Shown piece by piece: positions 1-22,638 of a DNA stretch of 64,000 bases. A model generated the notes under the pieces. The model was not told where the DNA came from. It searched no databases and saw only the letters and a list, made by a program, of their open reading frames with translations. Each line of letters opens with the position of its first letter. The stretch's first letter is position 1. A program made the translations under genes and the position numbers. Source of the stretch: Giardia intestinalis (taxonomy: Eukaryota); assembly GCA_000002435.2 (NCBI GenBank), contig CM018792.1, one strand, 5' to 3'.

Positions 1-3000
1 ACGTCGCCCTATGGGTGTGGCGGAATTTTACAGCCCTCACTGTCGAGCGGCCTTACCCATAGGCATCCCCACAGCTCAGGGCCAGCAGGCGTAGGTGGCG
101 CCCTTGCAGTGAGCCCCAGAGAACAGCCAGCGCGGAGTTTGATACGATCCTTATCATACCTCGCCAGACCTGGTCGAGAGCGCCCCCATTTTCCATAGAA
201 TGGCCCCCAACACAGTCCCAAGGCTGGGCGTAATGGGCAGCCTTTGGATTGCAGGGCGACACAGTGGATACTAGTGCACCCCGGCGAGACCTTGTGACCT
301 GCTTCAGAGGTTGCAAGAAATGCCCGTCTCTGGCCTACGTTTGTGCTAACGCTACGGTCTCAGAACGAAGCGAGGGAAGAACGCCTTGCCAGGCCCCGTG
401 GTAGCCCGTCTGTTTGGGAGACTGCAGATTACTGACTTGTGCGAGGCAACCGGAGGAGCCTGCTGGGCCAGACTACGAGGACTATGAGAGCCGCGGACAT
501 AACAGCCACACGGCCCCTACCTTCTTTCGGCTTCTCGGATTCCAGTTGACGCATCTGGCTGTGCACGACTCTATTTCCCTTTGTCAGGTGCATGGCGCGA
601 AGGTAGAGCAGCCCAGTCACAGCGTTCAACGCGTCTACTGCTGGATGGGCCCGAATAGTAGAAGAATGCCCATGGGTGTAATGACAGCGGCGATTCACGG
701 GTAGTCCACGATTGTACGTTCCACAGCCACCGACCGGAGTAGCCTTCGACTGGGCGTGTCTATACTAAGCCGTGGGCTGCTCTTCGAGGCTCTAGATGCG
801 TTTGATCCCTGCTCATGCATCCTGGCCTTATGCCTGCGGGTCTTTGGCTCGCAGCTATCTGGGCTTCATTTATCATGGACCGTTCGCTATGTATCCTTGT
901 TCCTGGAAAGCCCTCTAATGGCTGACAGAACAGGACCACAGGCTCCTGTGTCGCCGCAGTACGTGTCCGTTTCCTTCACCAGGTGATCGTACTCTCGCAA
1001 ATGACTCTGCCACCGGCTCTGTCGTCTTGGAAGAGTCTATACTGCAGGACTTCCCGTGAACTGTTTCTATGCAGATTAGAAATCTTACGTGCTTACCAAC
1101 GTAGGGATCCAATAACATGGCGCCATGCTCACAGTCCCAGGGTCACCAGACAATGGAGCACGGGGCTGAGAAACTCAGATTGCAGCAGTCCAGCTCTTGA
1201 GAATCCCTGCATATATTAGGACAGAGTGACTGGGCTAGCACACAGTGACATATTGAACCAGCCAGAGAGGCAAACAATCTCCTCTCATGTAAGACCCCTG
1301 TATATCTAGGGCGCCCAGACCATCTGAACTCGTAGGCATGCATCCAGTTCAATATCGGTAATCTAAGCACTGATAGACCGGTTGTGAGGCAGAGCCAGTG
1401 CCGACCCCAAGAGCTCAACTGCTCTGAGGCAGCACATTGTAGGCTATAACATTCTACACACTTCTGCTGATCGACCTCGCGCTCCAGCTGGCGGCAGAGG
1501 AGTGCACAGAAGTAGCTGATGGCCGCCACAGCCACTGCACGGGCCTCCAGGGCAGGGGGTCTCTCTGCCACTGCAATCTGCAGCAGCGTGGGGGCCGCCC
1601 CGTGTGCTGCCCCCTCTGCCGTAGCGGGGCTTCAGGCATGCCATCGGGACTGTCCGACGGTCGCCGGTTGAGCCCTGTGTGCACGGCAGGATGAGAAGAC
1701 TGCCCCACAACGACATGCCCTCGCTGGAGGACACCTGCAGGGCAGGGGAAGCTGTGGCCCACTGGGGGAGTGAACGATCTCAGTGGATCCAGGCGCACTG
1801 CACTGCGGGCCCGTCGGGCCGGTCTCTGACGGGCGCCGCGATCACTCTGCTCGGTCTGGCAGATCACGAGGGGTCTGAGGCCGGTCTGTTGGGAGGAGGA
1901 CCGGGACCCTCGCTGATGGTCGAGCAGAGTCACCACAGGGGGGCACGAGCTCGAGTGAATGAGGGCCCTCTTAGCAGCGCGCATGTCAACCGAGCGAGGA
2001 GAACGACATGGCAGACACCAAAGGAGCCATGACCTCCTGAGCCCTCTGAGGTTTGTACTAGGCTCGCTGGGCTTATCAATCTCAGGCTCTGGTTCGCTCG
2101 AGTGAGCACTGCAAGGGTGGGAAGGGAACCTAAATGGAGATAAGCCTCCACAAGTGGCGGACAGAGTATCTGTGATCGACACTTGCCACTGATGCTGTCT
2201 GGCAACTTAGCTTTGCAGAGGCCCATTGAGTAAGCACTCCAGGCAGTAATAACGCAATCAGCTAGCCATAGCTCTAGACTGCTCCTGAAGACCTGCAGCA
2301 AGGAAAGGCGAAGTCCCCAGAGCTTACCGATGCAGTGCCAGAGCTTATGCTCTTCTTCGATGATCTGCTGAGGCTATCTCAAAGGCTCCAAGACTATGGA
2401 GAGGGAAGCTTGATGGTAGGAATTCATAATCAGTGCTGCTCAGGACCCAGTAAGCCCTCCTCTCCAGTCATGGCGAGCTGCCGGGCCCTGGGAACGTCAG
2501 ATGGCCTTGCCGATGTGCATGGACAGTGGGTAAGAGGATCCCCAACGTCTACAGTTCACAGGAGCTGTTTTACTACAGGCTGTCAGGCTTCTTCCATGAC
2601 ATCACAGGGTTTCTGAAGCAGAGGCCCGGCAGAAAGAAGGTGGTGATAAGATAGCTAGGTCTCCAGCAGTGCAACAGAGAAGACCCTTGCTCTATCAGCG
2701 ATGACTCGCTTCCGTTTCCTGACACAATCGAGCATTGACTGAAGTTACTCACGGGATCCTTGGGGTGTGCTCGTAGGCAGAGGTCCTAGCAGCACAACGC
2801 TGAAGGTGACTGGTAGGTGGAATGAAGAAGTCCGAAGCTCTAGTGCCCACCCTGCACTGGTGCCCAGCCGGCTACAACCCCACAATTGAAGTCATCTCTC
2901 ATTGGGCACTTACCACACAAGGCAAGAAGGGCAGAGGGAATCCAGGGTGTACAATCTGTGTTTGGTGCGCTATCTGGATGATCTGTAAACAATACCGTGA

Positions 3001-3049
3001 ATCGCAAGCTTACCAGTACACGCGTTTCCTTTGTGATTATGAAATAAAA

Positions 3050-3787
3050 ATGTCGTCTGCAGATGATTCGGATCACTGCTCTCAGGAGCACGACTGCGCC
3101 CCGCCCCTCATGCCCGAGAAGGACACGAGCGAAGAGGGCGCAGGCAAGAGCAGCCCCGCCGAGTCTCCACAAACAGATGATGAAGGCAGTGTGGACGAGG
3201 ACGGCGTCACCACGCTTATGAAGGCAGCCAGCAGAAACGACGTGAAAGCGGTGAAGCGCTACATCCCTTATCAGGCAAGGATGGTGGCGAAGCTTGTCAA
3301 GGCGGGGACAATAGAGATACGCGAAGGGACGGCCCTGATGGTCGCCGCAGTGCTTGGACACGTCGAGACAGTGAAGCTGCTGATGAGGCACGAGCGTTGC
3401 ATGAGGGATAGTAATGAATGGACGGCCCTCATGTGGGCGGCGGGCAACGGTTGTACCGAGGTCGTGAAACTACTCCTGGATGTTGAGGGAGGCATGGAGA
3501 AGGACAGGGGCCTTACTGCCCTCGTGTTTGCAGCAAATTTTGGTCACCTGGAGTGTGTCAAGTTACTGCTGGAGAAGGAGAAGGACATAAGCGGCAGATC
3601 TGCCATTCGTATGGCTGGTATGCACGGCTGTTCCAAGGTGGTATCTTTTCTTGAGAGTGAGGGTATTATGGATCCCTATCTGCAGATGCCGCCCAAGAAA
3701 TTCGTGAGTGAACCTGCCTACTTGTTGATTGCATTCGATAATGTACTAGGGCCTCTCCAGCTGTGCAGGGGGACGGCCAGCCAATAG
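3050..3787 (+). CDS. ankyrin-repeat protein (Giardia 'Protein 21.1'-like), about 245 aa
   Basis: About five ankyrin repeats with the TALMxAA / G(H/N)xExVKLL pattern (TALMVAAVLGHVETVKLL, TALMWAAGNGCTEVVKLL, TALVFAANFGHLECVKLL). The ORF track starts at 2822, but the ATG at 3050 is directly preceded by an AT-rich initiator (tgaaataaaaATG), so 3050 is preferred. Confidence 0.7.
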   Translation: MSSADDSDHCSQEHDCAPPLMPEKDTSEEGAGKSSPAESPQTDDEGSVDEDGVTTLMKAASRNDVKAVKRYIPYQARMVAKLVKAGTIEIREGTALMVAAVLGHVETVKLLMRHERCMRDSNEWTALMWAAGNGCTEVVKLLLDVEGGMEKDRGLTALVFAANFGHLECVKLLLEKEKDISGRSAIRMAGMHGCSKVVSFLESEGIMDPYLQMPPKKFVSEPAYLLIAFDNVLGPLQLCRGTASQ

Positions 3788-4028
3788 GGCGAAGTGCTGG
3801 CCGTCAGTGGGTCACACAGCTGCCCGTTTCCGCAGAGGTCAAGGGGAACAGGCCTTCTCACCCCCGGCCGGCACTGGAACGCCGGTGGGTGAAACGGTCG
3901 CGCAGGTGGCCTTCTTGCCCCTGATGCAGTAGCCCTCCGCAAGCATTGGACCACTACAGATCTGTAGACACAAACCCCTGTGGAAACGGATCGTTTCCAA
4001 AACTGTAGATTACCAAAATAAAACCAGG

Positions 4029-6044
4029 ATGGACACTGCCTCGTCTGAGCCTGCAACAGTGGCCTCTAGTGTCCCGCAGTTTACCCTCAATGACCTCTAT
4101 GAACGGTTAGGTGATATACTAAGCAAAGATATCACGGGTATAGTCTACTCTCTCAAGGACTATCCGAGTCTCGTTGTAAAGGTCGCCCCACTAGGTTGCC
4201 TGGAAAAGGATAACACAGACGCTGTCCGACTCGAGCTGGCTGCCCTCCCCGAGCTCTCCCACCCAGGGGTTCTCAGGTATCATCAAGTGATCGAGCACAT
4301 GAATTTCGTCTACTTTATCACAGACCGTTACAACAAGACTCTCGGACGTCTTCTCATTGAGCATATGCAAATGAAGAGTCCTGTGCCCACCAGAGTGATC
4401 CTCTCAGCTATAAGACAGATCGCTACCGCCCTTGCCTACCTTCACAGTGTCAAAAGGGCAGATGCTGAGGGGCTTGTTCACCGCGATCTTAGGTCTACCA
4501 ATATCTCCATCAGTGCAGACGGTGAGCACTTCATCATCGCCGGCCTCGAACTCTGCAGGAACATCTTGTGGAGTGGAAGCACTCTTATAGGAATAGGGGC
4601 ACACACGGCCCCCGAGGTGCTCCTCCACAACGAGCCCAGCCCCGCCTCCGACGTGTGGAGCCTCGGGGTCATCATTTATGAACTAGTAACTCTAAGGATG
4701 CTGGACTTCCTGGAGGACAGGGAGCCAGAGGATGTCTTCGTTGATGGGTGGAGGCCAGACCTGAGCGGTGTCACTGATGGCTTCATGCAGAATGTTCTGG
4801 AGAGGATATTCGTGCTGGATCCTGGGAGGAGGCCGACGGCCAGGGAGCTGCATGAGATGCTCGACACAGCAGATATTTCGGATAACGAGCCGGAACCTTG
4901 GCAAGTGGCGCTGGAAAGTAAGCATGGTTCCTCGAAGATCACTGCGAGTAATACTCATGCCAAGATCGCGCTTTTGGAGGAGGAGGTCAAAACTAAGTTG
5001 AACGAGATTGCTACTCTTAAGGCAACCCTTGAGAACAGGCCAAGTGAAGTCGACGCCCTGGGACAGGAGCCCAGAATTAAGTTAACTAGGATCGACATGC
5101 TTGAAGATCAATGTAGAGAGTACCTAGCCATGATAAAAGTACTAGACAGTAGAATTACACAGATTAGCATTGCGCTAGGTCTATCCAATTCTCAATTCAG
5201 CCTCTTCTTGCTACCCAGATTTATACGCGCCGCACGCACGAATGAAACAGAGACCGTCCGAATGCTGGTCAATGAGGGAGTCTACATCGGTCAGCGTGAC
5301 GAGAAAAAGATGACGGCTCTTATGCATGCGGCCCAGCAGGGGCACACTGGTCCCATTGAATTGCTTGTTAAAGAAGAGAGGGGCCTCCAGGACAAGAACG
5401 GCTGGACTGCGCTCATGCACGCCGCACACTGCAACCACCCTGAAGCAGTCGAGATTCTCGCCCCTTACGAACGTGGGAGAAGAAACAAGAACAGTCGAAC
5501 TGCTCTAATGGTCGCTGCAGAGAATGGCAGTGCAGAAGCTGCTTCCATTTTGGGCCCGTACGAGGATAACCTAATCGACAGTGAAGGCAACACGGCTCTG
5601 ATGATTGCTGAGAAAGCAGGACACAAACTTGTTGCAGAGATTCTCAGTCCGGATGAAGTGGATGGGTGTACAGCGCTTATGCAAGCAGCGAAATGTGGTC
5701 GCATAGATGCGGTAAAACTCCTAATAAAAAACAAAAGCCGTGCACAAAACATACTTGGAACAACTGCTCTCATGGAAGCAGCGTCCTGGGGCCATTCAGA
5801 AATTGTGAAACTGCTAATTGATCATGAAGGAGGCATGCAGGACATCTTTGGAGCGACTGCTCTCATAACTGCAATACGTAATAATCAACTGGAATGTGCT
5901 AAACTTTTAGTAGAGAGGGAAAGGGATATAAAAGATAAGTATGATAAGACTGCCCTTGATATAGCTAAGGCTATGGTCTATCCTGAGATGGTGTCTCTCC
6001 TTAGCAGTAGTGTATCTAGCACCGGCGGCCACAATGACTCTTAG
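4029..6044 (+). CDS. NEK-family kinase-like protein, predicted pseudokinase, with C-terminal ankyrin repeats
   Basis: The N-terminal kinase fold has a VAIK-like lysine (LVVKVAP), HRDLRSTN, TAPE and DVWSLGVIIYEL, but no GxGxxG loop, and DFG is replaced by AGL. The catalytic-loop K is replaced by R. The C-terminal half carries at least six TALMxAA ankyrin repeats. An AT-rich initiator (caaaataaaaccaggATG) precedes the start and an AGTAAAC poly(A)-like motif follows the stop by about 20 nt. Confidence 0.8.
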   Translation: MDTASSEPATVASSVPQFTLNDLYERLGDILSKDITGIVYSLKDYPSLVVKVAPLGCLEKDNTDAVRLELAALPELSHPGVLRYHQVIEHMNFVYFITDRYNKTLGRLLIEHMQMKSPVPTRVILSAIRQIATALAYLHSVKRADAEGLVHRDLRSTNISISADGEHFIIAGLELCRNILWSGSTLIGIGAHTAPEVLLHNEPSPASDVWSLGVIIYELVTLRMLDFLEDREPEDVFVDGWRPDLSGVTDGFMQNVLERIFVLDPGRRPTARELHEMLDTADISDNEPEPWQVALESKHGSSKITASNTHAKIALLEEEVKTKLNEIATLKATLENRPSEVDALGQEPRIKLTRIDMLEDQCREYLAMIKVLDSRITQISIALGLSNSQFSLFLLPRFIRAARTNETETVRMLVNEGVYIGQRDEKKMTALMHAAQQGHTGPIELLVKEERGLQDKNGWTALMHAAHCNHPEAVEILAPYERGRRNKNSRTALMVAAENGSAEAASILGPYEDNLIDSEGNTALMIAEKAGHKLVAEILSPDEVDGCTALMQAAKCGRIDAVKLLIKNKSRAQNILGTTALMEAASWGHSEIVKLLIDHEGGMQDIFGATALITAIRNNQLECAKLLVERERDIKDKYDKTALDIAKAMVYPEMVSLLSSSVSSTGGHNDS

Positions 6045-6221
6045 GCTCTCTGCGACCCACAAGTAAACTGCCGCTCTCTTAGAGGGGCAAGGCCTGGAGG
6101 AGCAGCGTTGCAGGCTGGTGCCTCGGGTTTCTAGCCTGCGCCCGGCACCATAGAGCAGGTGCTCCGAGCTGCCCGCCCACGGTATTTCTGAGGAGCCGCG
6201 ATCGCAATTGGGAGGCAAAGA

Positions 6222-6974
6222 ATGGCATTTATTGAGGCGGCCAAGGAGAACAGGCTGGACTACGTCAGGGCCCACAAGGCCGCGGACGCAGGCCAGAGGG
6301 ACGCAGACGGGAAGACGGCGCTCATGTGGGCCGCCGAGGCCGGGCACACCGCCGTCGCCCTGGAGCTGGTCGACGCAGAGGCGGGCCTGGTCTCGAACGA
6401 CGGGTCCTTTGCGCTGATTGCGGCGGCAAAGAGGGGGAACCTCGAGCTGATCCAGGCCCTTTTCGAGAAGGAGGGGAGGCTGCGGGACGCCGGCAAGCTC
6501 TCCGCCCTCAACCACGCCTCCAGGGCGAAGCAGTTCGAGGCGGCCAAGGTCCTCCGGCTGAAGACCATCGAGACGATGGACGCGGCGATGCTGGAGCAGC
6601 TCCGGCAGAGGGTCGCGGCCACCTACACCGAGATGGCCAAGAAGTCGCAGCAGGCCGAGGTCAAGAGCCACAACATGGCCATCTTCCGCTCGTTCTTCGA
6701 GGCGTTCTACTCCCTCTCCTGCTCGGGGATCGACCAGGGGGCGGAGATCTCGGAGGAGCAGCTGAACAAGTCCCTCGAGAAGTGCCTGGGCGAGATCCGC
6801 AAGCTCCTCAACTCGAAGAAGTACACGAAGTGCGTGAAGTGCCGCGCCAACGCCCCCAACCTGGTCTGCATGCCGTGCAAGCACTACGTCCTCTGCAAGG
6901 ACTGCGGGAAGGACGTGGCCAGCGAGGTCTGTCCTGGTCTGCGAGAACCCCCTTGGCACACTAGTAGGCACTGA
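6222..6974 (+). CDS. ankyrin-repeat / C-terminal RING-finger (MIB/IAP-type) protein; 3' end appears frameshifted
   Basis: Ankyrin repeats ([36 protein letters not shown]) are followed by [35 protein letters not shown], which fits C3HC4 through the seventh ligand. The eighth Cys is missing in this frame (CPGLRE) and is restored in the +1 frame (CPVCE). The region is very GC-rich, so long antisense ORFs overlap it. Confidence 0.7.
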
Positions 6975-7341
6975 TAGTACCGCTAAGGCATATGTAGGAG
7001 TATATGGCTGCTCCCGGTGTACAGCACCAACAGCTCTAACAACAGCTGGCATGACTGCTGCTGTGTGTACCTCCTGTGACAGTGGTAAGAAGCCCAACAA
7101 GGATGGCAGTGGGTGTGTAGTATGCTCTGACACCAACTGCAAGAGCTGTGTGGTGGACGGTGTGTGTGGGGAGTGCAACAGTGGCTTCAGTCTAGACAAT
7201 GGCAAGTGTGTGTCTATGAGCACGAACAAGAGCGGGCTCTCCACGGGGGCCATCGCTGGCATCTCCGTCGCGGCGGTTGTCGTCGTGGGGGGCCTCGTGG
7301 GCTTCCTCTGCTGGTGGTTCGTGTGTAGAGGGAAGGCGTAG
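6838..7341 (+). pseudogene. VSP (variant-specific surface protein) 3' fragment: CXXC-rich segment, transmembrane helix and CRGKA tail
   Basis: The called ORF (7051-7341) encodes [20 protein letters not shown] and [13 protein letters not shown] motifs, then [26 protein letters not shown] and a terminal CRGKA, the conserved VSP C-terminus. There is no signal peptide or N-terminal domain. The same frame stays open upstream to 6838, including CSRC. Confidence 0.6.
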
Positions 7342-7561
7342 GTACTTAGGTAGCAAACGCTGTGAGTGGTGTAGGGACTTCATAGGGTGCTGGCAGTGGG
7401 ATGCGCACTAGAGTTGAGGGTGGAATCGTGCGAACCAGCTATTTAATCTAGCATCGTTATCACCATTGTTAGAAAACAGGGCACTCGGTGCTATCTTAGA
7501 TAAAAGCCAGACATAGGCAGTTCTAGGGGCGATCGAAGTAGTGAGAGCTTTAAAATTTAAA

Positions 7562-7855
7562 ATGACGAGACCAACTCTGGAATTGCACATTAAGCTCGGT
7601 ATGACCATCTTTGACACCACGTTCAACAGATGTAAAGTGGCCCATGCAAAGGACGTCATAGTGCAAGCCCATTTAGACGATAAAATTAAGACTCTCCGAG
7701 AGCGCGCGCTTTCTAGTCTGTCTGTCTCCGTCACTCACGGTGATCTTCATTTTCAAGGATGTCCCCTTGATCCTCAGCAAACTGTAGCAGAGGCAAGATT
7801 GTCTAACGGGGATAGGCTCTACCTTTTTTACTCGGTTCCACGAGGATTGGAATGA
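7562..7855 (+). CDS. small ubiquitin-like (beta-grasp) protein, about 97 aa
   Basis: The ATG at 7562 is preceded by an AT-rich initiator (ctttaaaatttaaaATG). The sequence LELHIKLGMTIFDTTF...LHFQGCPLDPQQTVAEARLSNGDRLYLF resembles ubiquitin beta1-beta2 and the LIFAGKQLEDGRTLSDY...LHLV region, but there is no terminal GG. Confidence 0.45.
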   Translation: MTRPTLELHIKLGMTIFDTTFNRCKVAHAKDVIVQAHLDDKIKTLRERALSSLSVSVTHGDLHFQGCPLDPQQTVAEARLSNGDRLYLFYSVPRGLE

Positions 7856-7878
7856 AGTTAATTCTTTGCCACATCTTT

Positions 7879-8361
7879 TCAACGTTGTAGATAGGTTCTC
7901 ATTAGCACAAGGAAGTCATTATTGGTTGATTCCCTTACTAGCCATCTAGTGTTAAATTCAGCAGCAAGAGCGGTCTCCTCCTCGGCCTTCAGGCCCAGGC
8001 GCGCGGCGGCCCGGTTGGCGAAGTAGACGGCGCGCTGGTCTGGGGGCTCGTTGTTCGCGGCCGAGACCTCGATCGCCTGGGTGAAGAGCCGGATCGCCTC
8101 CTGGAAGTCCTCCGCCTTGAAGGCGGCGTTGCCCTGCGCCTTGAGCTCGCTGGAGCTTGTGCTGGAGACCGCCGGCGCCTTCGCCCCGCTCAGGATCTGC
8201 TCCAGGTCGCCGTTGCCGTGCCTGACGTCCTTGAGTCCGAAGCAGTCCCGGAGGCAATCGATGGCGACGTCCAGGTTGTCGGTGTCCTCAACGGCTTGCG
8301 CAGCCCTGAGGTAGAGGAGGTACTCGACGACGAGCCTCTTGGCGGCCAGCCTTGTCGTCAT
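7879..8361 (-). pseudogene. truncated duplicate of the SGT (Sgt2/SGTA-like) gene
   Basis: The first 134 codons are identical to the full-length SGT gene at 21757-22638. Identity ends exactly at the inverted-repeat boundary (7961), after which 26 unrelated codons run to a stop. The 5' initiator region is retained. Confidence 0.7.
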
Positions 8362-11300
8362 CTATTTTTAAGCAGTCGTTCACTCCCTCTCAAAGTACTC
8401 TCGCTGGTCCATGATCACAGAAACCACCGCGTTCATGTCGCGCCCGAGCCTGACATATGCCTCCCTCACCCGGTTGTAGTTCAGGTCGCCACCACAGATC
8501 CCGATGATCGTGGCGATGTTGTCCTCGTCGTCCGCGGTCAGCGGAGGGGGCTGCTCTGCAGGCTGCGGCGGCGCCCTTTCCCTTGGAATAAGGATCCCTC
8601 TCCCGGCCATCCCTGCCTCGATCATGTTCAGGTAGAGGTGGAGCACCTCAAGGAGCAAGTCGCGATCCTCGTTGAATCTCAGCACCAGATTGGGGCTCCA
8701 GTCGGATATCTGGGTTGTAAACATCTCCAAGAAGTTCGGTGTCTGGAGTATCTGCTCTAGCTCCTCGGTGCTGTACATGTGTGGTCTGTGGCTGTGTCTG
8801 GCCGCGCCCATGTGCCGGAGGGTGTCCTCGAGATCCTCTTCTGTCGGATCTTCGGCGATGATGGCAGCTGCCAGATCCATGTTGTTATTAGCCAGCTCGA
8901 GCGATATCTGCGCCAGCCGTGGCCTACAGGAAAAGGTCTCTACTAGCTGTGCGACGAGGTCCGAGTTGTTGCTAACTGGGTCTAGTTCTAAGGCATCTGA
9001 ATTGGATCCGGACGAGGAGTCTTGCACCTCAGCATGAGGATCTCGCGAAGCAGCCGATTCAATTTGCCGGGCCTGCGCGACCCCTGCGGCAGAACTGCTG
9101 GGAGGCGCTTCAAGGATCCTTCCGCGAGGTTTAGCCTGAGTGAATACTACGGTATCCTGAGTGATATTTGGAACCTTCGACAGTAGAATACCGTCATCAT
9201 TCAAGATAGATGCGTTGAGAATGAGACGGATGGTGGGCGCCTCTGCGGAGATGGCCTCAGCAACCTTCTTCCGCAGATCGCCGACGGTGCTATCTGGAAA
9301 AAACTCGAATGTCCTTGGCTCGAATTCCTTCACTGTGGACCTAACCGCGATCCTGATGCAATCAGACATTTTTTGTTTGCATAGACTAATAATTCACTTT
9401 ATCTCAGAGGGTGCGGTCACGGTTATCTCACCGGAGTAACAATCCGTTGTGCTCTGTGAGTGCCGATTGCTCTGCGGAACCATTTCCAGCGCCCTGACAA
9501 ATGAACGGTTAGAGCGTAGGGCCTTGTTAGCATACTGTGTATCCTCGCCTGCCACAAACTCTAACCCTAAGAAGTCGGCCATTTCGACATTGTTTGCTGA
9601 TGTTTCATGCCTAGACGCGAGGTGCGGCGCCTTCGACTGCGCTCGGCTCTTAGGCTTGAAAGCATTTGCTGCATGTAAATCCCCAAGCTGCCTTTCCTCT
9701 CTTCCGCAGGCGGCAGTGTTTTTCCGAGCAGGTAAAGAAACATCGCCAACTGATTGATGCCTTGCTGACAACTCAAGTTTGTTCTGAGACATATTGCCTT
9801 GAAGCTTACTCCCGTTATTAGGTAGGATGTTTCCCCCTTGAGACCTATTAGAAGTTAGTGAATTCTTGACTGTCGGGACGATTTCTTCTTGAGTTGAGCA
9901 GGAAACTACATCCCTCGCCGAAGCAGAAAGGTGACCTTGCTTGAGTGAGGCACCAAGCTCGCCTGCAATAGAGCTGCCACTCAGACGTGTACACGCAAGA
10001 TTAGCTGAGCTATCGTTTTGACAGATGATGATAGAATGGCTCTCCCCTTCTGTGTGAGGAAACTCAACAATGGTGTCCCGGCCGGAAAAGGAAACCCGGT
10101 CCTTTGTGGAAGTCGCTGGTTGCCCTTTAGCTCGTTTCTCGACCGCTTCAACACCTGCACTGGCCATGTTCTGCTTGCTAGTGTACCTGCTCTCCGAAAA
10201 TAACTCACCAGAGGTAACATTAGCATCATCCTCACTCATCGATGAAGTGGAATGCTGAGTCTCGACCTGCGATAGCCTGACATGTCGGCTTTCAAGGCAG
10301 TCAGCCGTAACAACTGTGTGGCCAAGCTTACTCAGGTGCTTCCCGTCGAAGTCGACGCTTTTGTTTTGCCGTAAGATGGACTGAAAGTTGGAATTGCGTA
10401 GTATGGAAGAGTTAGACAGCGCATGTCGCACACTCTGCTGAGATGAAGGATTGTCCGCGTCACATGTCCTTGGCGTCTTTGCACTAACTCTGAATTCATT
10501 GGTAGTCGTGGCACTATTTTGTGATAGAGATGTTCTGCTCAGCGAGTAGGGATCTTTGCTTTCCTGCCCCAGCGGAAGCGTGACCAGGCTTATGTTGCTA
10601 TCGCTGGAGGGTGTCTGTGGGAGGAGAGGGGCCGGACGCAGACGCTGAAAATCTGTTGAATGAGGTGCTCTGTCGCTATAGACTGGTGGTGAAGCTACTG
10701 AATCCCCTGTCAGAGGGAGAGTTGGCGGTATATAAATGGGGGTTATAGAAGTGTTTTGCCTGTCGTTCCTCATGTTGCTAAGCGGAACGTGCTTCGGTAT
10801 CTGAGTATCCTTGTAAATCGTAGAATCTTCTGTCAGGTGGCTTTCATTCTTTACATCCAAGTCAATCACTGTGGTCGAGGAAGCATGCGCCGAATGGACA
10901 TCGCCGGGGTCTTCCGACGAGGAATCCGAATAGTAATAGTAAGACTCTTCGTCGCTCTCCATTGAGTTGTAGTCCAGTTGACTGTGGTCACTGTCCTTCT
11001 TCTTGCTAACTGGTTCCTGTTTTTGCGCAGCAGGAAGTGTTGCCCTGGACTGAGTAGACGACGTAGTAATGGGCATTATGTCGGGCATTTTTCCGGTGAT
11101 GATAGGGAAAACCCGGGTAGCTTTTGGCCGAGTAGACTCTGACTTGGCAGAGTTTGTTACAGGGAAGGGCAAGCTTGCTATCTGCGTGATTAGGGGGAGC
11201 TGAGTATATGGCACCTTTTTCAACGGCAATGACACTGATGTTGCATTTTGCAGGGTCGTCAGTCGGTTTGGAGACACAATGACGGGCGCGGGCTGTACAT

Positions 11301-12089
11301 CTGGGCATAACGGAATTGATCGTTTTGTCGAGATCGACTCTGATGTATTTAGTGGAAACTTTACAGACTGTTCCTGCAAACAAGAAGGGTCTTGAGCATT
11401 AGTTGTTCGACGCGCAGAGCTCACGTGCATCCTATACCGACGATCCTTACTTGATGTAATTCGGGGCGCCCCCTGTAATTGGTACGGAGGAACAAGTTTT
11501 GGTACGGAAGTTCGGAACGGGATAGCCGAGCTTATCTCACTAGCTTCGTCTTGCTTAGTTCGTCCAAGAGTGAAGCAAATATTCCCAAAGTTTTCCGGAA
11601 ATTTCGTTGAAGGAATGACAATAGAGAGTGGAGGCGGGCGGAAGCTGGAAGAGTCACTAACAGTGCAATCGCTAGTAACCCTACTAAGAGAGAAGTTTGC
11701 TGGGCGAGCCGGCTCATTCGGCATGTGGAGGGATATACTTGAGCCCATAGAGACGCCAGCGGCTTCAGGAATGGGCAAGCCACCAAGCTGATTCTGAGAA
11801 GCACCGAGCCCCACCTCCCTCTCGGATCCGTTAGACTTAGACTGTCTTTCTATTTCCCGAGAAGACTTCTCGTTACACACAGCACTACAGGAGGCTACTT
11901 TTACCTCTGCAAGGTCTGGCCTAAACGAGTCGGCACTTTTCACCTCTTCCACGTTGTTTAGGGCTGTTGCGTGACCTGCGCATGTCTCTTGGCGGCCTTC
12001 AAAGGACGACGTTTTGCTAGTCACCTCCTTACACTCTTCAAGAGACGGCGGCGCGTCCGAGTCCAGCGCGGAAATCTGTCCGCTGCGCC
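7961..12089. repeat. inverted repeat arm A (4129 bp), reverse-complement of 18029-22157
   Basis: Every ORF in the arm has an identical reverse-strand twin, and coordinates map as x to 30118-x. Junction bases were checked by eye at 7961/22157 and at 12089/18029. Confidence 0.85.
8380..9369 (-). CDS. UBL-UBA domain protein (ubiquilin/Dsk2/Rad23-like shuttle-factor architecture), copy 1
   Basis: The N-terminal ubiquitin-like fold is IRIAVRSTVKEFEPRTFEFFPDSTVGDLRKKVAEAIS...TVVFTQ. The C-terminal UBA-like helix bundle is IATIIGICGGDLNYNRVREAYVRLGRDMNAVVSVIMDQ. It is 329 aa and identical to the copy at 20749-21738. Confidence 0.7.
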   Translation of the reverse strand: MSDCIRIAVRSTVKEFEPRTFEFFPDSTVGDLRKKVAEAISAEAPTIRLILNASILNDDGILLSKVPNITQDTVVFTQAKPRGRILEAPPSSSAAGVAQARQIESAASRDPHAEVQDSSSGSNSDALELDPVSNNSDLVAQLVETFSCRPRLAQISLELANNNMDLAAAIIAEDPTEEDLEDTLRHMGAARHSHRPHMYSTEELEQILQTPNFLEMFTTQISDWSPNLVLRFNEDRDLLLEVLHLYLNMIEAGMAGRGILIPRERAPPQPAEQPPPLTADDEDNIATIIGICGGDLNYNRVREAYVRLGRDMNAVVSVIMDQREYFERE

Positions 12090-18028: not shown

Positions 18029-20724
18029 GGCGCAGCGGACAGATTTCCGCGCTGGACTCGGACGCGCCGCCGTCTCTTGAAGAGTGTAAGGAGGTGACTA
18101 GCAAAACGTCGTCCTTTGAAGGCCGCCAAGAGACATGCGCAGGTCACGCAACAGCCCTAAACAACGTGGAAGAGGTGAAAAGTGCCGACTCGTTTAGGCC
18201 AGACCTTGCAGAGGTAAAAGTAGCCTCCTGTAGTGCTGTGTGTAACGAGAAGTCTTCTCGGGAAATAGAAAGACAGTCTAAGTCTAACGGATCCGAGAGG
18301 GAGGTGGGGCTCGGTGCTTCTCAGAATCAGCTTGGTGGCTTGCCCATTCCTGAAGCCGCTGGCGTCTCTATGGGCTCAAGTATATCCCTCCACATGCCGA
18401 ATGAGCCGGCTCGCCCAGCAAACTTCTCTCTTAGTAGGGTTACTAGCGATTGCACTGTTAGTGACTCTTCCAGCTTCCGCCCGCCTCCACTCTCTATTGT
18501 CATTCCTTCAACGAAATTTCCGGAAAACTTTGGGAATATTTGCTTCACTCTTGGACGAACTAAGCAAGACGAAGCTAGTGAGATAAGCTCGGCTATCCCG
18601 TTCCGAACTTCCGTACCAAAACTTGTTCCTCCGTACCAATTACAGGGGGCGCCCCGAATTACATCAAGTAAGGATCGTCGGTATAGGATGCACGTGAGCT
18701 CTGCGCGTCGAACAACTAATGCTCAAGACCCTTCTTGTTTGCAGGAACAGTCTGTAAAGTTTCCACTAAATACATCAGAGTCGATCTCGACAAAACGATC
18801 AATTCCGTTATGCCCAGATGTACAGCCCGCGCCCGTCATTGTGTCTCCAAACCGACTGACGACCCTGCAAAATGCAACATCAGTGTCATTGCCGTTGAAA
18901 AAGGTGCCATATACTCAGCTCCCCCTAATCACGCAGATAGCAAGCTTGCCCTTCCCTGTAACAAACTCTGCCAAGTCAGAGTCTACTCGGCCAAAAGCTA
19001 CCCGGGTTTTCCCTATCATCACCGGAAAAATGCCCGACATAATGCCCATTACTACGTCGTCTACTCAGTCCAGGGCAACACTTCCTGCTGCGCAAAAACA
19101 GGAACCAGTTAGCAAGAAGAAGGACAGTGACCACAGTCAACTGGACTACAACTCAATGGAGAGCGACGAAGAGTCTTACTATTACTATTCGGATTCCTCG
19201 TCGGAAGACCCCGGCGATGTCCATTCGGCGCATGCTTCCTCGACCACAGTGATTGACTTGGATGTAAAGAATGAAAGCCACCTGACAGAAGATTCTACGA
19301 TTTACAAGGATACTCAGATACCGAAGCACGTTCCGCTTAGCAACATGAGGAACGACAGGCAAAACACTTCTATAACCCCCATTTATATACCGCCAACTCT
19401 CCCTCTGACAGGGGATTCAGTAGCTTCACCACCAGTCTATAGCGACAGAGCACCTCATTCAACAGATTTTCAGCGTCTGCGTCCGGCCCCTCTCCTCCCA
19501 CAGACACCCTCCAGCGATAGCAACATAAGCCTGGTCACGCTTCCGCTGGGGCAGGAAAGCAAAGATCCCTACTCGCTGAGCAGAACATCTCTATCACAAA
19601 ATAGTGCCACGACTACCAATGAATTCAGAGTTAGTGCAAAGACGCCAAGGACATGTGACGCGGACAATCCTTCATCTCAGCAGAGTGTGCGACATGCGCT
19701 GTCTAACTCTTCCATACTACGCAATTCCAACTTTCAGTCCATCTTACGGCAAAACAAAAGCGTCGACTTCGACGGGAAGCACCTGAGTAAGCTTGGCCAC
19801 ACAGTTGTTACGGCTGACTGCCTTGAAAGCCGACATGTCAGGCTATCGCAGGTCGAGACTCAGCATTCCACTTCATCGATGAGTGAGGATGATGCTAATG
19901 TTACCTCTGGTGAGTTATTTTCGGAGAGCAGGTACACTAGCAAGCAGAACATGGCCAGTGCAGGTGTTGAAGCGGTCGAGAAACGAGCTAAAGGGCAACC
20001 AGCGACTTCCACAAAGGACCGGGTTTCCTTTTCCGGCCGGGACACCATTGTTGAGTTTCCTCACACAGAAGGGGAGAGCCATTCTATCATCATCTGTCAA
20101 AACGATAGCTCAGCTAATCTTGCGTGTACACGTCTGAGTGGCAGCTCTATTGCAGGCGAGCTTGGTGCCTCACTCAAGCAAGGTCACCTTTCTGCTTCGG
20201 CGAGGGATGTAGTTTCCTGCTCAACTCAAGAAGAAATCGTCCCGACAGTCAAGAATTCACTAACTTCTAATAGGTCTCAAGGGGGAAACATCCTACCTAA
20301 TAACGGGAGTAAGCTTCAAGGCAATATGTCTCAGAACAAACTTGAGTTGTCAGCAAGGCATCAATCAGTTGGCGATGTTTCTTTACCTGCTCGGAAAAAC
20401 ACTGCCGCCTGCGGAAGAGAGGAAAGGCAGCTTGGGGATTTACATGCAGCAAATGCTTTCAAGCCTAAGAGCCGAGCGCAGTCGAAGGCGCCGCACCTCG
20501 CGTCTAGGCATGAAACATCAGCAAACAATGTCGAAATGGCCGACTTCTTAGGGTTAGAGTTTGTGGCAGGCGAGGATACACAGTATGCTAACAAGGCCCT
20601 ACGCTCTAACCGTTCATTTGTCAGGGCGCTGGAAATGGTTCCGCAGAGCAATCGGCACTCACAGAGCACAACGGATTGTTACTCCGGTGAGATAACCGTG
20701 ACCGCACCCTCTGAGATAAAGTGA
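18029..20724 (+). pseudogene. promoterless duplicate of the 3' part (C-terminal ~898 codons) of the giant kinase gene, in IR arm B
   Basis: The 876 aa track ORF (18094-20724) is identical to the C-terminal 876 aa of the 9394-17406 product. The track ORF opens with GTG at 18094 and lacks a start/initiator of its own; the copy begins abruptly at the repeat boundary, 35 bp after the LRR gene stop. Confidence 0.7.
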
Positions 20725-20748
20725 ATTATTAGTCTATGCAAACAAAAA

Positions 20749-21738
20749 ATGTCTGATTGCATCAGGATCGCGGTTAGGTCCACAGTGAAGGAATTCGAGC
20801 CAAGGACATTCGAGTTTTTTCCAGATAGCACCGTCGGCGATCTGCGGAAGAAGGTTGCTGAGGCCATCTCCGCAGAGGCGCCCACCATCCGTCTCATTCT
20901 CAACGCATCTATCTTGAATGATGACGGTATTCTACTGTCGAAGGTTCCAAATATCACTCAGGATACCGTAGTATTCACTCAGGCTAAACCTCGCGGAAGG
21001 ATCCTTGAAGCGCCTCCCAGCAGTTCTGCCGCAGGGGTCGCGCAGGCCCGGCAAATTGAATCGGCTGCTTCGCGAGATCCTCATGCTGAGGTGCAAGACT
21101 CCTCGTCCGGATCCAATTCAGATGCCTTAGAACTAGACCCAGTTAGCAACAACTCGGACCTCGTCGCACAGCTAGTAGAGACCTTTTCCTGTAGGCCACG
21201 GCTGGCGCAGATATCGCTCGAGCTGGCTAATAACAACATGGATCTGGCAGCTGCCATCATCGCCGAAGATCCGACAGAAGAGGATCTCGAGGACACCCTC
21301 CGGCACATGGGCGCGGCCAGACACAGCCACAGACCACACATGTACAGCACCGAGGAGCTAGAGCAGATACTCCAGACACCGAACTTCTTGGAGATGTTTA
21401 CAACCCAGATATCCGACTGGAGCCCCAATCTGGTGCTGAGATTCAACGAGGATCGCGACTTGCTCCTTGAGGTGCTCCACCTCTACCTGAACATGATCGA
21501 GGCAGGGATGGCCGGGAGAGGGATCCTTATTCCAAGGGAAAGGGCGCCGCCGCAGCCTGCAGAGCAGCCCCCTCCGCTGACCGCGGACGACGAGGACAAC
21601 ATCGCCACGATCATCGGGATCTGTGGTGGCGACCTGAACTACAACCGGGTGAGGGAGGCATATGTCAGGCTCGGGCGCGACATGAACGCGGTGGTTTCTG
21701 TGATCATGGACCAGCGAGAGTACTTTGAGAGGGAGTGA
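20749..21738 (+). CDS. UBL-UBA domain protein, copy 2 (identical to 8380-9369)
   Basis: Same 329 aa product as copy 1. It lies immediately upstream of, and co-oriented with, the full-length SGT gene, with an 18 bp gap. Confidence 0.7.
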   Translation: MSDCIRIAVRSTVKEFEPRTFEFFPDSTVGDLRKKVAEAISAEAPTIRLILNASILNDDGILLSKVPNITQDTVVFTQAKPRGRILEAPPSSSAAGVAQARQIESAASRDPHAEVQDSSSGSNSDALELDPVSNNSDLVAQLVETFSCRPRLAQISLELANNNMDLAAAIIAEDPTEEDLEDTLRHMGAARHSHRPHMYSTEELEQILQTPNFLEMFTTQISDWSPNLVLRFNEDRDLLLEVLHLYLNMIEAGMAGRGILIPRERAPPQPAEQPPPLTADDEDNIATIIGICGGDLNYNRVREAYVRLGRDMNAVVSVIMDQREYFERE

Positions 21739-21756
21739 ACGACTGCTTAAAAATAG

Positions 21757-22638
21757 ATGACGACAAGGCTGGCCGCCAAGAGGCTCGTCGTCGAGTACCT
21801 CCTCTACCTCAGGGCTGCGCAAGCCGTTGAGGACACCGACAACCTGGACGTCGCCATCGATTGCCTCCGGGACTGCTTCGGACTCAAGGACGTCAGGCAC
21901 GGCAACGGCGACCTGGAGCAGATCCTGAGCGGGGCGAAGGCGCCGGCGGTCTCCAGCACAAGCTCCAGCGAGCTCAAGGCGCAGGGCAACGCCGCCTTCA
22001 AGGCGGAGGACTTCCAGGAGGCGATCCGGCTCTTCACCCAGGCGATCGAGGTCTCGGCCGCGAACAACGAGCCCCCAGACCAGCGCGCCGTCTACTTCGC
22101 CAACCGGGCCGCCGCGCGCCTGGGCCTGAAGGCCGAGGAGGAGACCGCTCTTGCTGCCAAGGACTGCGAGGAGAGTGTGCGCCTTTGTCCAAGCTACCAC
22201 AAGGCGTGGTTCCGCCTCGGGAATATCCGTGAGAGTGCTGGTAATAAGCCTGAGGCGTACAGGGCGTACAGCCAGGCCCTGACGGCAGACCCTAGCAATC
22301 CGAAGTATCGCGAAGCCCGTGATCGTGTCAGCGAGGGCCGTCCTGAACAAGCCACCCCTGACCTCTCAGCACTTGCCAATAACCCTCTCTTTTCGCAGCT
22401 TCGGGATGATCCTGAAATTATCGCCTTGATGCAAAACCCCAAGGTGGCTGACCTTTTATCTAAAGTTAACTCGAATCCAATGGCCATTATGGGCGCCATG
22501 TCAGACCCGGAACTAGCCCCTATTTTCCAGCGCCTCGTCCAAAAGCTTGGGCCACAGCTTTCTAGCATGCTCGGTGGACTTGGTGGACTTTTCGGAGGAG
22601 GCGGAGCGAACTCTCCACCCTCGGGTATGTACTCGTGA
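21757..22638 (+). CDS. SGT: small glutamine-rich TPR co-chaperone SGT (Sgt2/SGTA homolog), 293 aa
   Basis: The N-terminal dimerisation helix KRLVVEYLLYLRAA...LDVAIDCLRDCFGL matches SGTA KRLAYAIIQFLHDQL...LEVAIQCLETAFGV. Three TPRs follow (ELKAQGNAAFKAEDFQEAIRLFTQAIE..., AVYFANRAAARLGL, AWFRLGNI). The C-terminus has NNPLF, Q/M-rich and Gly-rich segments. Confidence 0.9.
   Translation: MTTRLAAKRLVVEYLLYLRAAQAVEDTDNLDVAIDCLRDCFGLKDVRHGNGDLEQILSGAKAPAVSSTSSSELKAQGNAAFKAEDFQEAIRLFTQAIEVSAANNEPPDQRAVYFANRAAARLGLKAEEETALAAKDCEESVRLCPSYHKAWFRLGNIRESAGNKPEAYRAYSQALTADPSNPKYREARDRVSEGRPEQATPDLSALANNPLFSQLRDDPEIIALMQNPKVADLLSKVNSNPMAIMGAMSDPELAPIFQRLVQKLGPQLSSMLGGLGGLFGGGGANSPPSGMYS

Follow-up and report, generated by a model that had tools for sequence, protein, structure and literature searches.

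An ankyrin-RING gene adjoining a VSP 3′ remnant out of frame at several assemblage-A loci of Giardia intestinalis

Introduction

The genome of Giardia WB harbors 208 pseudo-VSPs without a signal peptide and 33 ARP-2 genes, and its synteny breaks are located at VSP, NEK and ARP regions (PMC7000408). Truncated vsp pseudogenes have also been described within contigs (PMC2996952), and in G. muris, pseudogenes of NEK, ARP and zinc-finger genes accompany the VSPs (PMC7641422). With regard to the definition of these elements, a VSP carries a cysteine-rich ectodomain with CXXC motifs, a C-terminal transmembrane helix followed by CRGKA, a signal peptide (PMC7000408) and its own start codon within the initiator PyAatgTT (PMC2996952), and a VSP homologue without a proper signal peptide or start is classified as a pseudo-VSP (PMC7000408). 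Members of the ARP-2 family combine ankyrin repeats and a zinc-finger Pfam match in one protein. The finger considered here, zf-C3HC4_3 (PF13920), is a C-terminal RING-HC of the IAP/MDM2/neuralized-like E3 class with eight zinc ligands. Mosaic archives of antigen genes are known from other organisms, such as the VSG pseudogenes of trypanosomes (PMC13233330), and VSP switching in Giardia has been described as epigenetic (PMC2996952).

Here, we describe a locus within a 64-kb stretch of DNA from Giardia WB, of assemblage A (hereafter, the window), in which an ARP-2 gene and a VSP fragment meet. In common with the pseudo-VSPs and truncated vsp pseudogenes of WB (PMC7000408, PMC2996952), the fragment has a transmembrane helix and CRGKA in the absence of a signal peptide and start, and it occupies a chromosome-internal site where synteny breaks, with NEK and ankyrin genes as its neighbors. 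It differs from them in that its 5′ end is defined to the nucleotide and truncates an adjoining non-VSP gene, and in that this chimeric seam exists in several copies, of which we found no description in the cited pseudo-VSP literature. As a pseudo-VSP, an ARP-2 paralogue and a rearrangement of multigene families, the locus falls into known categories, and it agrees with the published accounts of synteny breaks and truncated vsp genes in WB; what appears to be new is limited to its description at the nucleotide level and to the chimeric seam in several copies.

Results

The ARP-2 reading frame carries seven of the eight zinc ligands of its RING finger

The features of the locus are compiled in Table 1. 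The ankyrin-RING open reading frame (frame 0) encodes 250 amino acids, in which both ankyrin repeats (Pfam Ank_2, E=5.5e-18) and a C-terminal RING of the zf-C3HC4_3 type were matched, and it is annotated as Ankyrin repeat protein 2, like the known members of that family. Its accessions, XP_001707229.1 and KAE8303465.1, correspond to one WB record, and the two annotation versions agree on the reading frame; in WB, this gene and the NEK kinase upstream of it (671 amino acids) are located on the 2.76-Mb chromosome. We take the XP_ and KAE accession series to be the 2007 and 2020 WB annotations, respectively, and the identical 250-residue product in both therefore makes a sequencing error unlikely. 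The AACB03 (PacBio) annotation of WB is described in PMC7000408. No repeat of positions 5900-7600 was found elsewhere within the window, and a text search of papers retrieved no mention of the ARP-2 protein accessions.

Table 1. Coordinates of the features at the ARP-2/pseudo-VSP locus of the window.
Feature	Position	Strand	Basis or remark
NEK kinase with ankyrin repeats; lies upstream in the repeated module	4029..6044	+	Identical to WB P0259 (XP_001707230.1/KAE8303464.1)
Stretch homologous to intact ARP-2 genes	6186..6934	+	98.4% identical to intact copy L001; match ends at 6934
Ankyrin-RING ORF (annotated Ankyrin repeat protein 2)	6222..6974	+	Identical to P0254 (XP_001707229.1 = KAE8303465.1)
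RING finger remnant, ligands C1-C7, C8 missing	6831..6932	+	Ligand coordinates computed
Putative recombination seam TCTGTCC	6928..6934	+	RING DNA homology ends at 6934; VSP protein homology (SVL[AV]C.NPLG) starts at 6928
Pseudo-VSP, 5′-truncated remnant in the +1 frame (137 aa + stop; 5 CXXC)	6928..7341	+	Pfam VSP E=9e-22
VSP transmembrane helix (26 aa)	7246..7323	+	Aligns to the conserved VSP transmembrane segment
CRGKA cytoplasmic tail	7324..7338	+	Followed by TAG at 7339-7341
Conserved VSP 3′ flank GTACTTAGGTAGCAAACGC	7342..7365	+	Alignment with L012 (GTACTTAGATAGTAAAC)

In the annotated frame, the zinc ligands are C204, C207, C219, H221, C225, C228 and C237, and the eighth is absent. The spacing of C1-C7, including the C-x-H pair and the CP of the final CPxC, is that of the zf-C3HC4_3 RING-HC fingers, from which the window copy differs by the lack of the last ligand. 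In line with this, the Pfam match covered positions 3-40 of the 49 in the profile, compared to 3-48 in the intact paralogue P0245. The score of 32.6 bits, which lies above the Pfam gathering cut-off of 27, is best read as a sign of RING descent and not of completeness. Since the eighth ligand is missing, the second zinc site cannot form canonically, and the 250-residue product, if made, would probably be an ankyrin protein with a crippled RING, inactive as an E3. Two histidines of the frame-0 tail (H246 and H250) were considered as substitute ligands and rejected, because this tail is not conserved between copies (e.g., ...SRSSRYR, ISLW*); furthermore, dN was about equal to dS in frame 0.

Removal of one G from the GG at 6936-6937 converts the end of the finger into ...EVCPVCENPLG..., that is, a CPVC, and raises the zf-C3HC4_3 score from 32.6 to 38.2 bits. 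In this respect, sequence checks bore out what the original prediction had described: a reading frame without the eighth ligand, its apparent repair by loss of one G, and a +1 frame open as far as CRGKA.

Intact relatives place the end of the RING homology at 6934

Intact ARP-2 proteins comprise 252 residues with the C-terminus CPACNKPVEEFMEVFK (254 residues in G. muris, with 69% identity, to which the intact form is conserved). Records of them were found in WB (n=4), in the assemblage-A genome GCA_000498715.1, which we take to be isolate DH, in assemblage B (GS and others), in assemblage E (P15), in other lineages represented by assemblies of public reads, and in G. muris. All of them share the C-terminus VCPAC[ND]..VE..MEVFK, the final pair of ligands being continued as C237-P-A-C240-NKPVEEFMEVFK. 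Orthologues ending in ...CPGL, like the window copy, had been contemplated initially; in assemblages A, B and E as well as in G. muris, intact relatives have CPAC and the conserved tail at this place instead.

At the DNA level, the window and the intact copy L001 are unrelated beyond the end of their match at 6934, which indicates that the RING was cut rather than shifted. Identity of the same stretch to assemblage B was 81%, and the coding part (6222-6927) was 97-99% identical to its assemblage-A paralogues. Compared to the known ARP-2 family, the window copy has lost the true eighth ligand and 14 C-terminal residues (tail ACNKPVEEFMEVFK), and it ends in 12 residues derived from out-of-frame VSP DNA. 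The disparity between the ARP-2 gene (98%) and the neighboring kinase (74%) in their identity to L001 had raised the suspicion of contamination or transfer between assemblages. Both were rejected once a syntenic contig (L012) and a multicopy family had been found, L001 being a paralogue.

The +1 frame downstream of the seam is a VSP remnant

The VSP match of the +1 frame, which spans positions 286-397 of the 397 in the Pfam profile, is far beyond chance, and over about 137 residues this frame shows 84-85% amino acid identity to the WB VSPs XP_001705783.1, S6 and XP_001706653.1. The frame is open from 6838 to the TAG; it had been described as 168 codons leading to a CRGKA at 7341, and while its openness stands, it consists of 167 residues plus the stop, with CRGKA itself at 7324-7338. 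Not all of it is related to VSPs. Its first 30 codons (6838-6927) simply read the GC-rich ARP-2 coding sequence in another frame. This sequence also contains a 212-residue ORF in the sense +2 frame and an antisense frame that is stop-free inside a 451-residue antisense ORF; the VSP-derived coding sequence is restricted to 6928-7338.

Full-length VSPs have the consensus ...QSVLAC[GSE]NPLGTL..AKAYVGVDGCS.CTAPTAL..., whose motif QSVLAC[GSE]NPLGTL is matched by the +1 frame of the window. The more relaxed pattern S[VAI][LM].C.N[PSA]LG was present in 38 of the 116 VSP matches screened, with QSVLAC.NPLGT in most. As the match to the SVL motif lies upstream of the GG, VSP homology begins at 6928, and the cysteine at 6940-6942, which completes the finger upon loss of one G, is the VSP's own conserved cysteine in its native VSP frame.

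The remnant corresponds roughly to the C-terminal quarter to third of a typical VSP. It retains the C-terminal transmembrane helix, CRGKA and a cysteine-rich ectodomain segment whose five CXXC motifs align membrane-proximally. Upstream of it, no VSP sequence, signal peptide or initiator was found, and its only in-frame ATG, at 7051 in the context GGCATGAC, encodes a methionine conserved inside VSPs. Being devoid of a start context, a signal peptide and the N-terminal domain, the remnant is therefore a pseudo-VSP. It is presumably untranslated and would serve at most as 3′ UTR sequence and as a substrate for recombination. The Giardia poly(A) signal is AGTRAAY; in the VSP 3′ flank of the window, the usual AGTAAAC motif is altered to AGCAAAC.

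The same junction is present in several copies

The junction was found in the same phase at three loci (L012, L013 and L014) of GCA_000498715.1, and the phase of the GG is identical at the four loci read as DNA, that is, these three and the window. It was also present in the protein records P0253, P0248, P0249, P0251 and P0256, of which P0253 is a second WB copy known as protein and P0256 comes from one assembly of public reads. Among the records found, no ARP-2/VSP junction was present in assemblages B and E or in G. muris. In every chimeric copy, the VSP cysteine codon lies 7 nt past the codon of C7.

The contig of L012 is syntenic with positions 1-7115 of the window (94% identity), and its seam reads TCT GTA TTA GCC TGT (S-V-L-A-C), compared to TCT GTC CTG GTC TGC (S-V-L-V-C) in the window. 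Read in the VSP frame, four of these differences, the first two at 6933 and 6934, are silent changes in V, L and C codons, and the remaining one exchanges A for V. Their outcome in the RING frame is C-I-S-L-W-stop in L012 against C-P-G-L-R in the window, and the ARP-2 product of L012 is therefore 241 residues long. Nei-Gojobori counts over the 60 codons past the seam, with the window compared to each of L012, L013 and L014, gave, for the VSP frame, a dS of 0.35-0.69, a dN of 0.11-0.14 and a dN/dS of 0.2-0.3; dN was about equal to or higher than dS (dN/dS of ~1 or more) in both remaining frames. Substitutions after the junction thus fit the VSP frame alone.

A search with a hypothetical 372-residue in-frame fusion as a query retrieved ARP-2 clusters and hundreds of VSPs, and no in-frame ankyrin-RING-VSP fusion among 5.8 billion proteins. 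Similarly, no protein combining PF13920 and PF03302 was found in this collection. A scan of JGI metagenomes, a collection without a Giardia copy, for one or two bases between CCT and YCTGC yielded a single match, the bacterial recR zinc finger (EVCPICENP), which we regard as a coincidence.

The seam lies in a short stretch that is alike in both parental genes

The seam TCTGTCC fits both parents, being read as ..V-C-P in the RING frame and as S-V-L in the VSP frame. It constitutes a 7-nt overlap, inside the last C-x2-C, between two genes that are one base out of phase. At this position, intact RING genes read ..AGGTCTGTCC-CGCTTGC (K-V-C-P-A-C) and VSP genes ..AG-TCTGTCCTGGCCTGC (Q-S-V-L-A-C), and the parents are alike over about 15-16 nt (RING GTCTGTCC-CGCTTGC versus GTCTGTCCTGG[CT]CTGC in the chimeras). 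Owing to this similarity, a crossover at the seam would be possible and the removal of one base would recreate a C-x2-C. The only full VSP gene read as DNA (L015) encodes SVLAC by other codons (TCC GTG TTG GCA TGT); the 7-nt microhomology is therefore the overlap of two homologies and not a demonstrated donor sequence, and a microhomology mechanism is put forward for the seam as a plausible route.

The two sides of the seam differ in their relationships

A module made up of an ankyrin gene, a NEK kinase, an ARP-2 gene and a pseudo-VSP is repeated at several assemblage-A loci, and every ARP-2 copy read in GCA_000498715.1, whether intact or truncated, is preceded by an ankyrin gene and a NEK kinase. 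When paralogous modules are compared, nucleotide identity is 74-84% for the kinases and 97-99% for the ARP-2 coding parts, a contrast indicative of concerted evolution through gene conversion or of a recent spread of the ARP-2 segment. We consider it probable that gene conversion with intact copies has kept the ARP-2 parts at this level of identity.

The VSP tails of the chimeric copies, all open to CRGKA and differing by in-frame indels, were 63-78% identical to each other, compared to 82-85% to unrelated full-length VSPs. This greater proximity to unrelated VSPs suggests that sequence was exchanged with the VSP repertoire at large or, possibly, that the seam formed more than once. The boundaries of similarity vary as well: that to L012 ends near 7358, about 17 nt past the VSP stop, and the window flank at 7164-8453 matches the module on L013 (96%). 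A 3′ antigen fragment apparently exchanged with an expressed repertoire recalls the mosaic archives of trypanosome VSG type (PMC13233330), from which the window relic differs in having no evident role as a donor to expressed VSPs.

Discussion

Taken together, these results are, with high confidence on our part, best explained by an old recombination event in which a duplicated ARP-2 gene and a 3′ fragment of a VSP gene became joined out of frame. The crossover would have taken place inside the short stretch alike in both genes. Here, their reading frames lie one base apart, so that the ARP-2 frame would have entered VSP DNA out of frame and come to a stop after 12 junk codons, with the loss of the eighth ligand and of the C-terminal residues on the ARP-2 side. 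The VSP side (137 codons with the five CXXC motifs, the transmembrane helix, CRGKA and the 3′ flank) would have stayed open in its own frame. One of the two readings offered in the original prediction, namely, a disabled RING next to a VSP 3′ relic left by a rearrangement, is thereby retained in its outcome, though not in the one-base frameshift or sequencing error that had been invoked for it: the RING is cut by the junction, homology to the intact copies ends at 6934 and the cysteine in question is native to the VSP.

An explanation to which we give a small but appreciable chance is that the junction arose repeatedly and independently, the similar stretch of 15-16 nt acting as a hotspot at any place where a VSP lies downstream of an ARP-2 gene. 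The copies do carry tails of different VSP subtypes, as judged from the identity of these tails to each other relative to that with other VSPs, and the modules carry old, divergent kinases. Nevertheless, the junction is the same to the nucleotide in all copies, the codons around it are the same in most, and no junction was found outside assemblage A among the records from assemblages B and E and from G. muris. Moreover, the near-identity of the ARP-2 parts is such that conversion tracts including the seam would account for the pattern with one event.

Far less probable is the view that the G run at 6936-6937 of an originally in-frame, tail-anchored ankyrin-RING-VSP fusion gained one base, be it in the genome or through an error of sequencing or assembly. 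The textbook CPVC and the higher Pfam score obtained by deletion of one G speak in its favor, as does the constant distance of 7 nt between C7 and the VSP cysteine, by which a one-base skip gives a C-x2-C in all copies. Against this, the same phase was seen in four loci, two genomes, two WB annotations and one assembly of public reads; the +1-frame residues just before the cysteine are the VSP motif SVL[AV]; and the differences of L012 at this place are synonymous in the VSP frame. In addition, three changes within 6 nt would have to be assumed to derive CCTGGTC from the CCCGCT of the RING, with 99% identity in the rest of the gene, the CPAC and conserved 12-residue tail of the intact orthologues, as far as G. 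muris, are missing in the window, and the in-frame fusion was not found among the 5.8 billion proteins. This explanation is therefore largely refuted.

The least probable account, to which we attach next to no weight, is low-level +1 ribosomal frameshifting or transcript slippage, which would yield a complete C3HC4 RING fused to the VSP transmembrane helix and CRGKA; it can draw on a VSP frame that is open from the seam to CRGKA at four loci despite 15-37% amino acid divergence and in-frame indels, on a phase kept in every copy and on the fact that a C-x2-C would result from a shift at any of the few codons that separate C7 from the VSP cysteine, but repeated copying from functional VSP genes explains the openness and the low dN/dS just as well, inspection by eye revealed no obvious slippery or stimulatory element, and the product would be a VSP ectodomain fragment on a protein without a signal peptide. 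To our knowledge, programmed frameshifting has not been reported in Giardia. The related proposal of an unusual tail-anchored ankyrin-RING E3 that had captured a VSP tail is not supported either. A tail-anchored RING E3 carries its RING and a single C-terminal transmembrane helix in one frame, whereas here, the helix is in the +1 frame at all four loci read, every copy is out of frame, no in-frame fusion was present among the 5.8 billion proteins searched, frame 0 stops even earlier in L012 (CISLW*), and substitutions after the junction follow the VSP frame.

Returning to the recombination of an ARP-2 copy with a VSP fragment, the adjacent parts of the resulting chimera appear to have followed different courses, the ARP-2 part being probably homogenized with intact copies and the VSP part being seemingly exchanged with the VSP repertoire. 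That both reading frames are open at all four loci despite divergence and indels could also reflect function, and not gene conversion.

These observations have consequences for the annotation of the family. Among the WB genes that bear the name Ankyrin repeat protein 2, at least two (XP_001707229.1 and XP_001709652.1) are 3′-truncated chimeras with an incomplete RING, and there are three more such chimeras in GCA_000498715.1; they are therefore not to be counted as intact E3 candidates. As a more general caution, a textbook motif may reappear upon a one-base correction as a mere consequence of the short similarity that guided a recombination. Were the frameshifting account true after all, the product would be a membrane-anchored E3 made of antigen-gene parts. 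As it stands, the locus provides a nucleotide-resolved example of how VSP fragments, NEK kinases and ankyrin genes are shuffled at synteny breaks, in which two opposite homogenizing processes would adjoin, with near-identical ARP-2 parts on one side of the seam and rapidly exchanged VSP parts on the other.

Three Consecutive Gene Fragments beside a Large Inverted Repeat

The window contains a perfect inverted repeat of 4,129 bp (100% identity), whose copies are separated by a 5.9-kb spacer and each carry a 329-aa ubiquitin-like gene together with the 3' 2.7 kb of a 2,670-aa ORF. The edge of this repeat is probably the 'repeat boundary' named in the original prediction. A 160-aa TPR ORF represents a shortened version of a 293-aa SGT-like protein, and its truncation point coincides exactly with the boundary of the inverted repeat at position 7961. 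Therefore, the 6.2–8.4 kb segment contains three consecutive gene fragments, namely the truncated ankyrin-RING gene (ARP-2), the 5'-truncated VSP remnant (pseudo-VSP) and the truncated SGT gene.

Features of the fragment cluster and the adjoining repeat
Feature	Position	Strand	Remarks
451-aa antisense ORF	5907-7262	-	covers the entire ARP-2 gene and part of the pseudo-VSP
160-aa TPR ORF	7882-8361	-	adjoins the pseudo-VSP
Inverted repeat, first copy	7961-12089
Inverted repeat, second copy	18029-22157
293-aa SGT-like protein	21757-22635	+	SGTA dimerisation domain, TPR repeats, STI1 DP domain

Comparison with a Second Assemblage-A Genome

The flanks of the module (ankyrin gene, NEK kinase, ARP-2 and pseudo-VSP) were matched by two separate contigs of the second assemblage-A genome, with window positions 1-7115 matching the syntenic contig L012 and 7164-8453 matching L013, such that the switch between them falls within the pseudo-VSP. 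This switch could reflect either unequal recombination between paralogous modules or a difference in assembly. The end of L013 itself lies within the 4,129-bp inverted repeat. Identity between the window and the syntenic contig, measured per 200 nt, ranged from 86% to 100%, a degree of unevenness that is unusual for a pair of genomes from assemblage A.

A Coincidental Match to the ARP-2/VSP Junction and a Probably Incidental Antisense ORF

A recR-like bacterial gene (L016, positions 960-984; JGI metagenome contig Ga0210003_1057598), encoding ...EVCPICENPG..., equals the hypothetical in-frame version of the junction, with one G dropped, at 24 of 25 bases. As an instance of that version the match was rejected, being a pure coincidence between zinc-finger codons. 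On the opposite strand, one antisense frame of the ARP-2 coding sequence is free of stops. The high GC content of this segment (62–70%) most likely accounts for the 451-aa antisense ORF and its open frame.

Further Truncations and Chimeras in These Families

Assemblage E (Giardia P15) harbors an intact 252-aa ARP-2 and a second, truncated copy, P0261 (GLP15_3994, 229 aa). The break point of the latter differs from that of the ARP-2 in the window, with divergence setting in after the second RING cysteine (...KCMKCRAPVSSQYHPVANVPVITWSSV); P0261 is an independent truncation within the ARP-2 gene family. Separately, one assemblage-B record named VSP (923 aa) combines kinase, ankyrin and VSP Pfam domains in a single protein, and two records named Ser/Thr protein kinase contain a VSP domain only. 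These three records (P0080, P0180 and P0233) may represent more NEK/VSP chimeras or merged gene calls.
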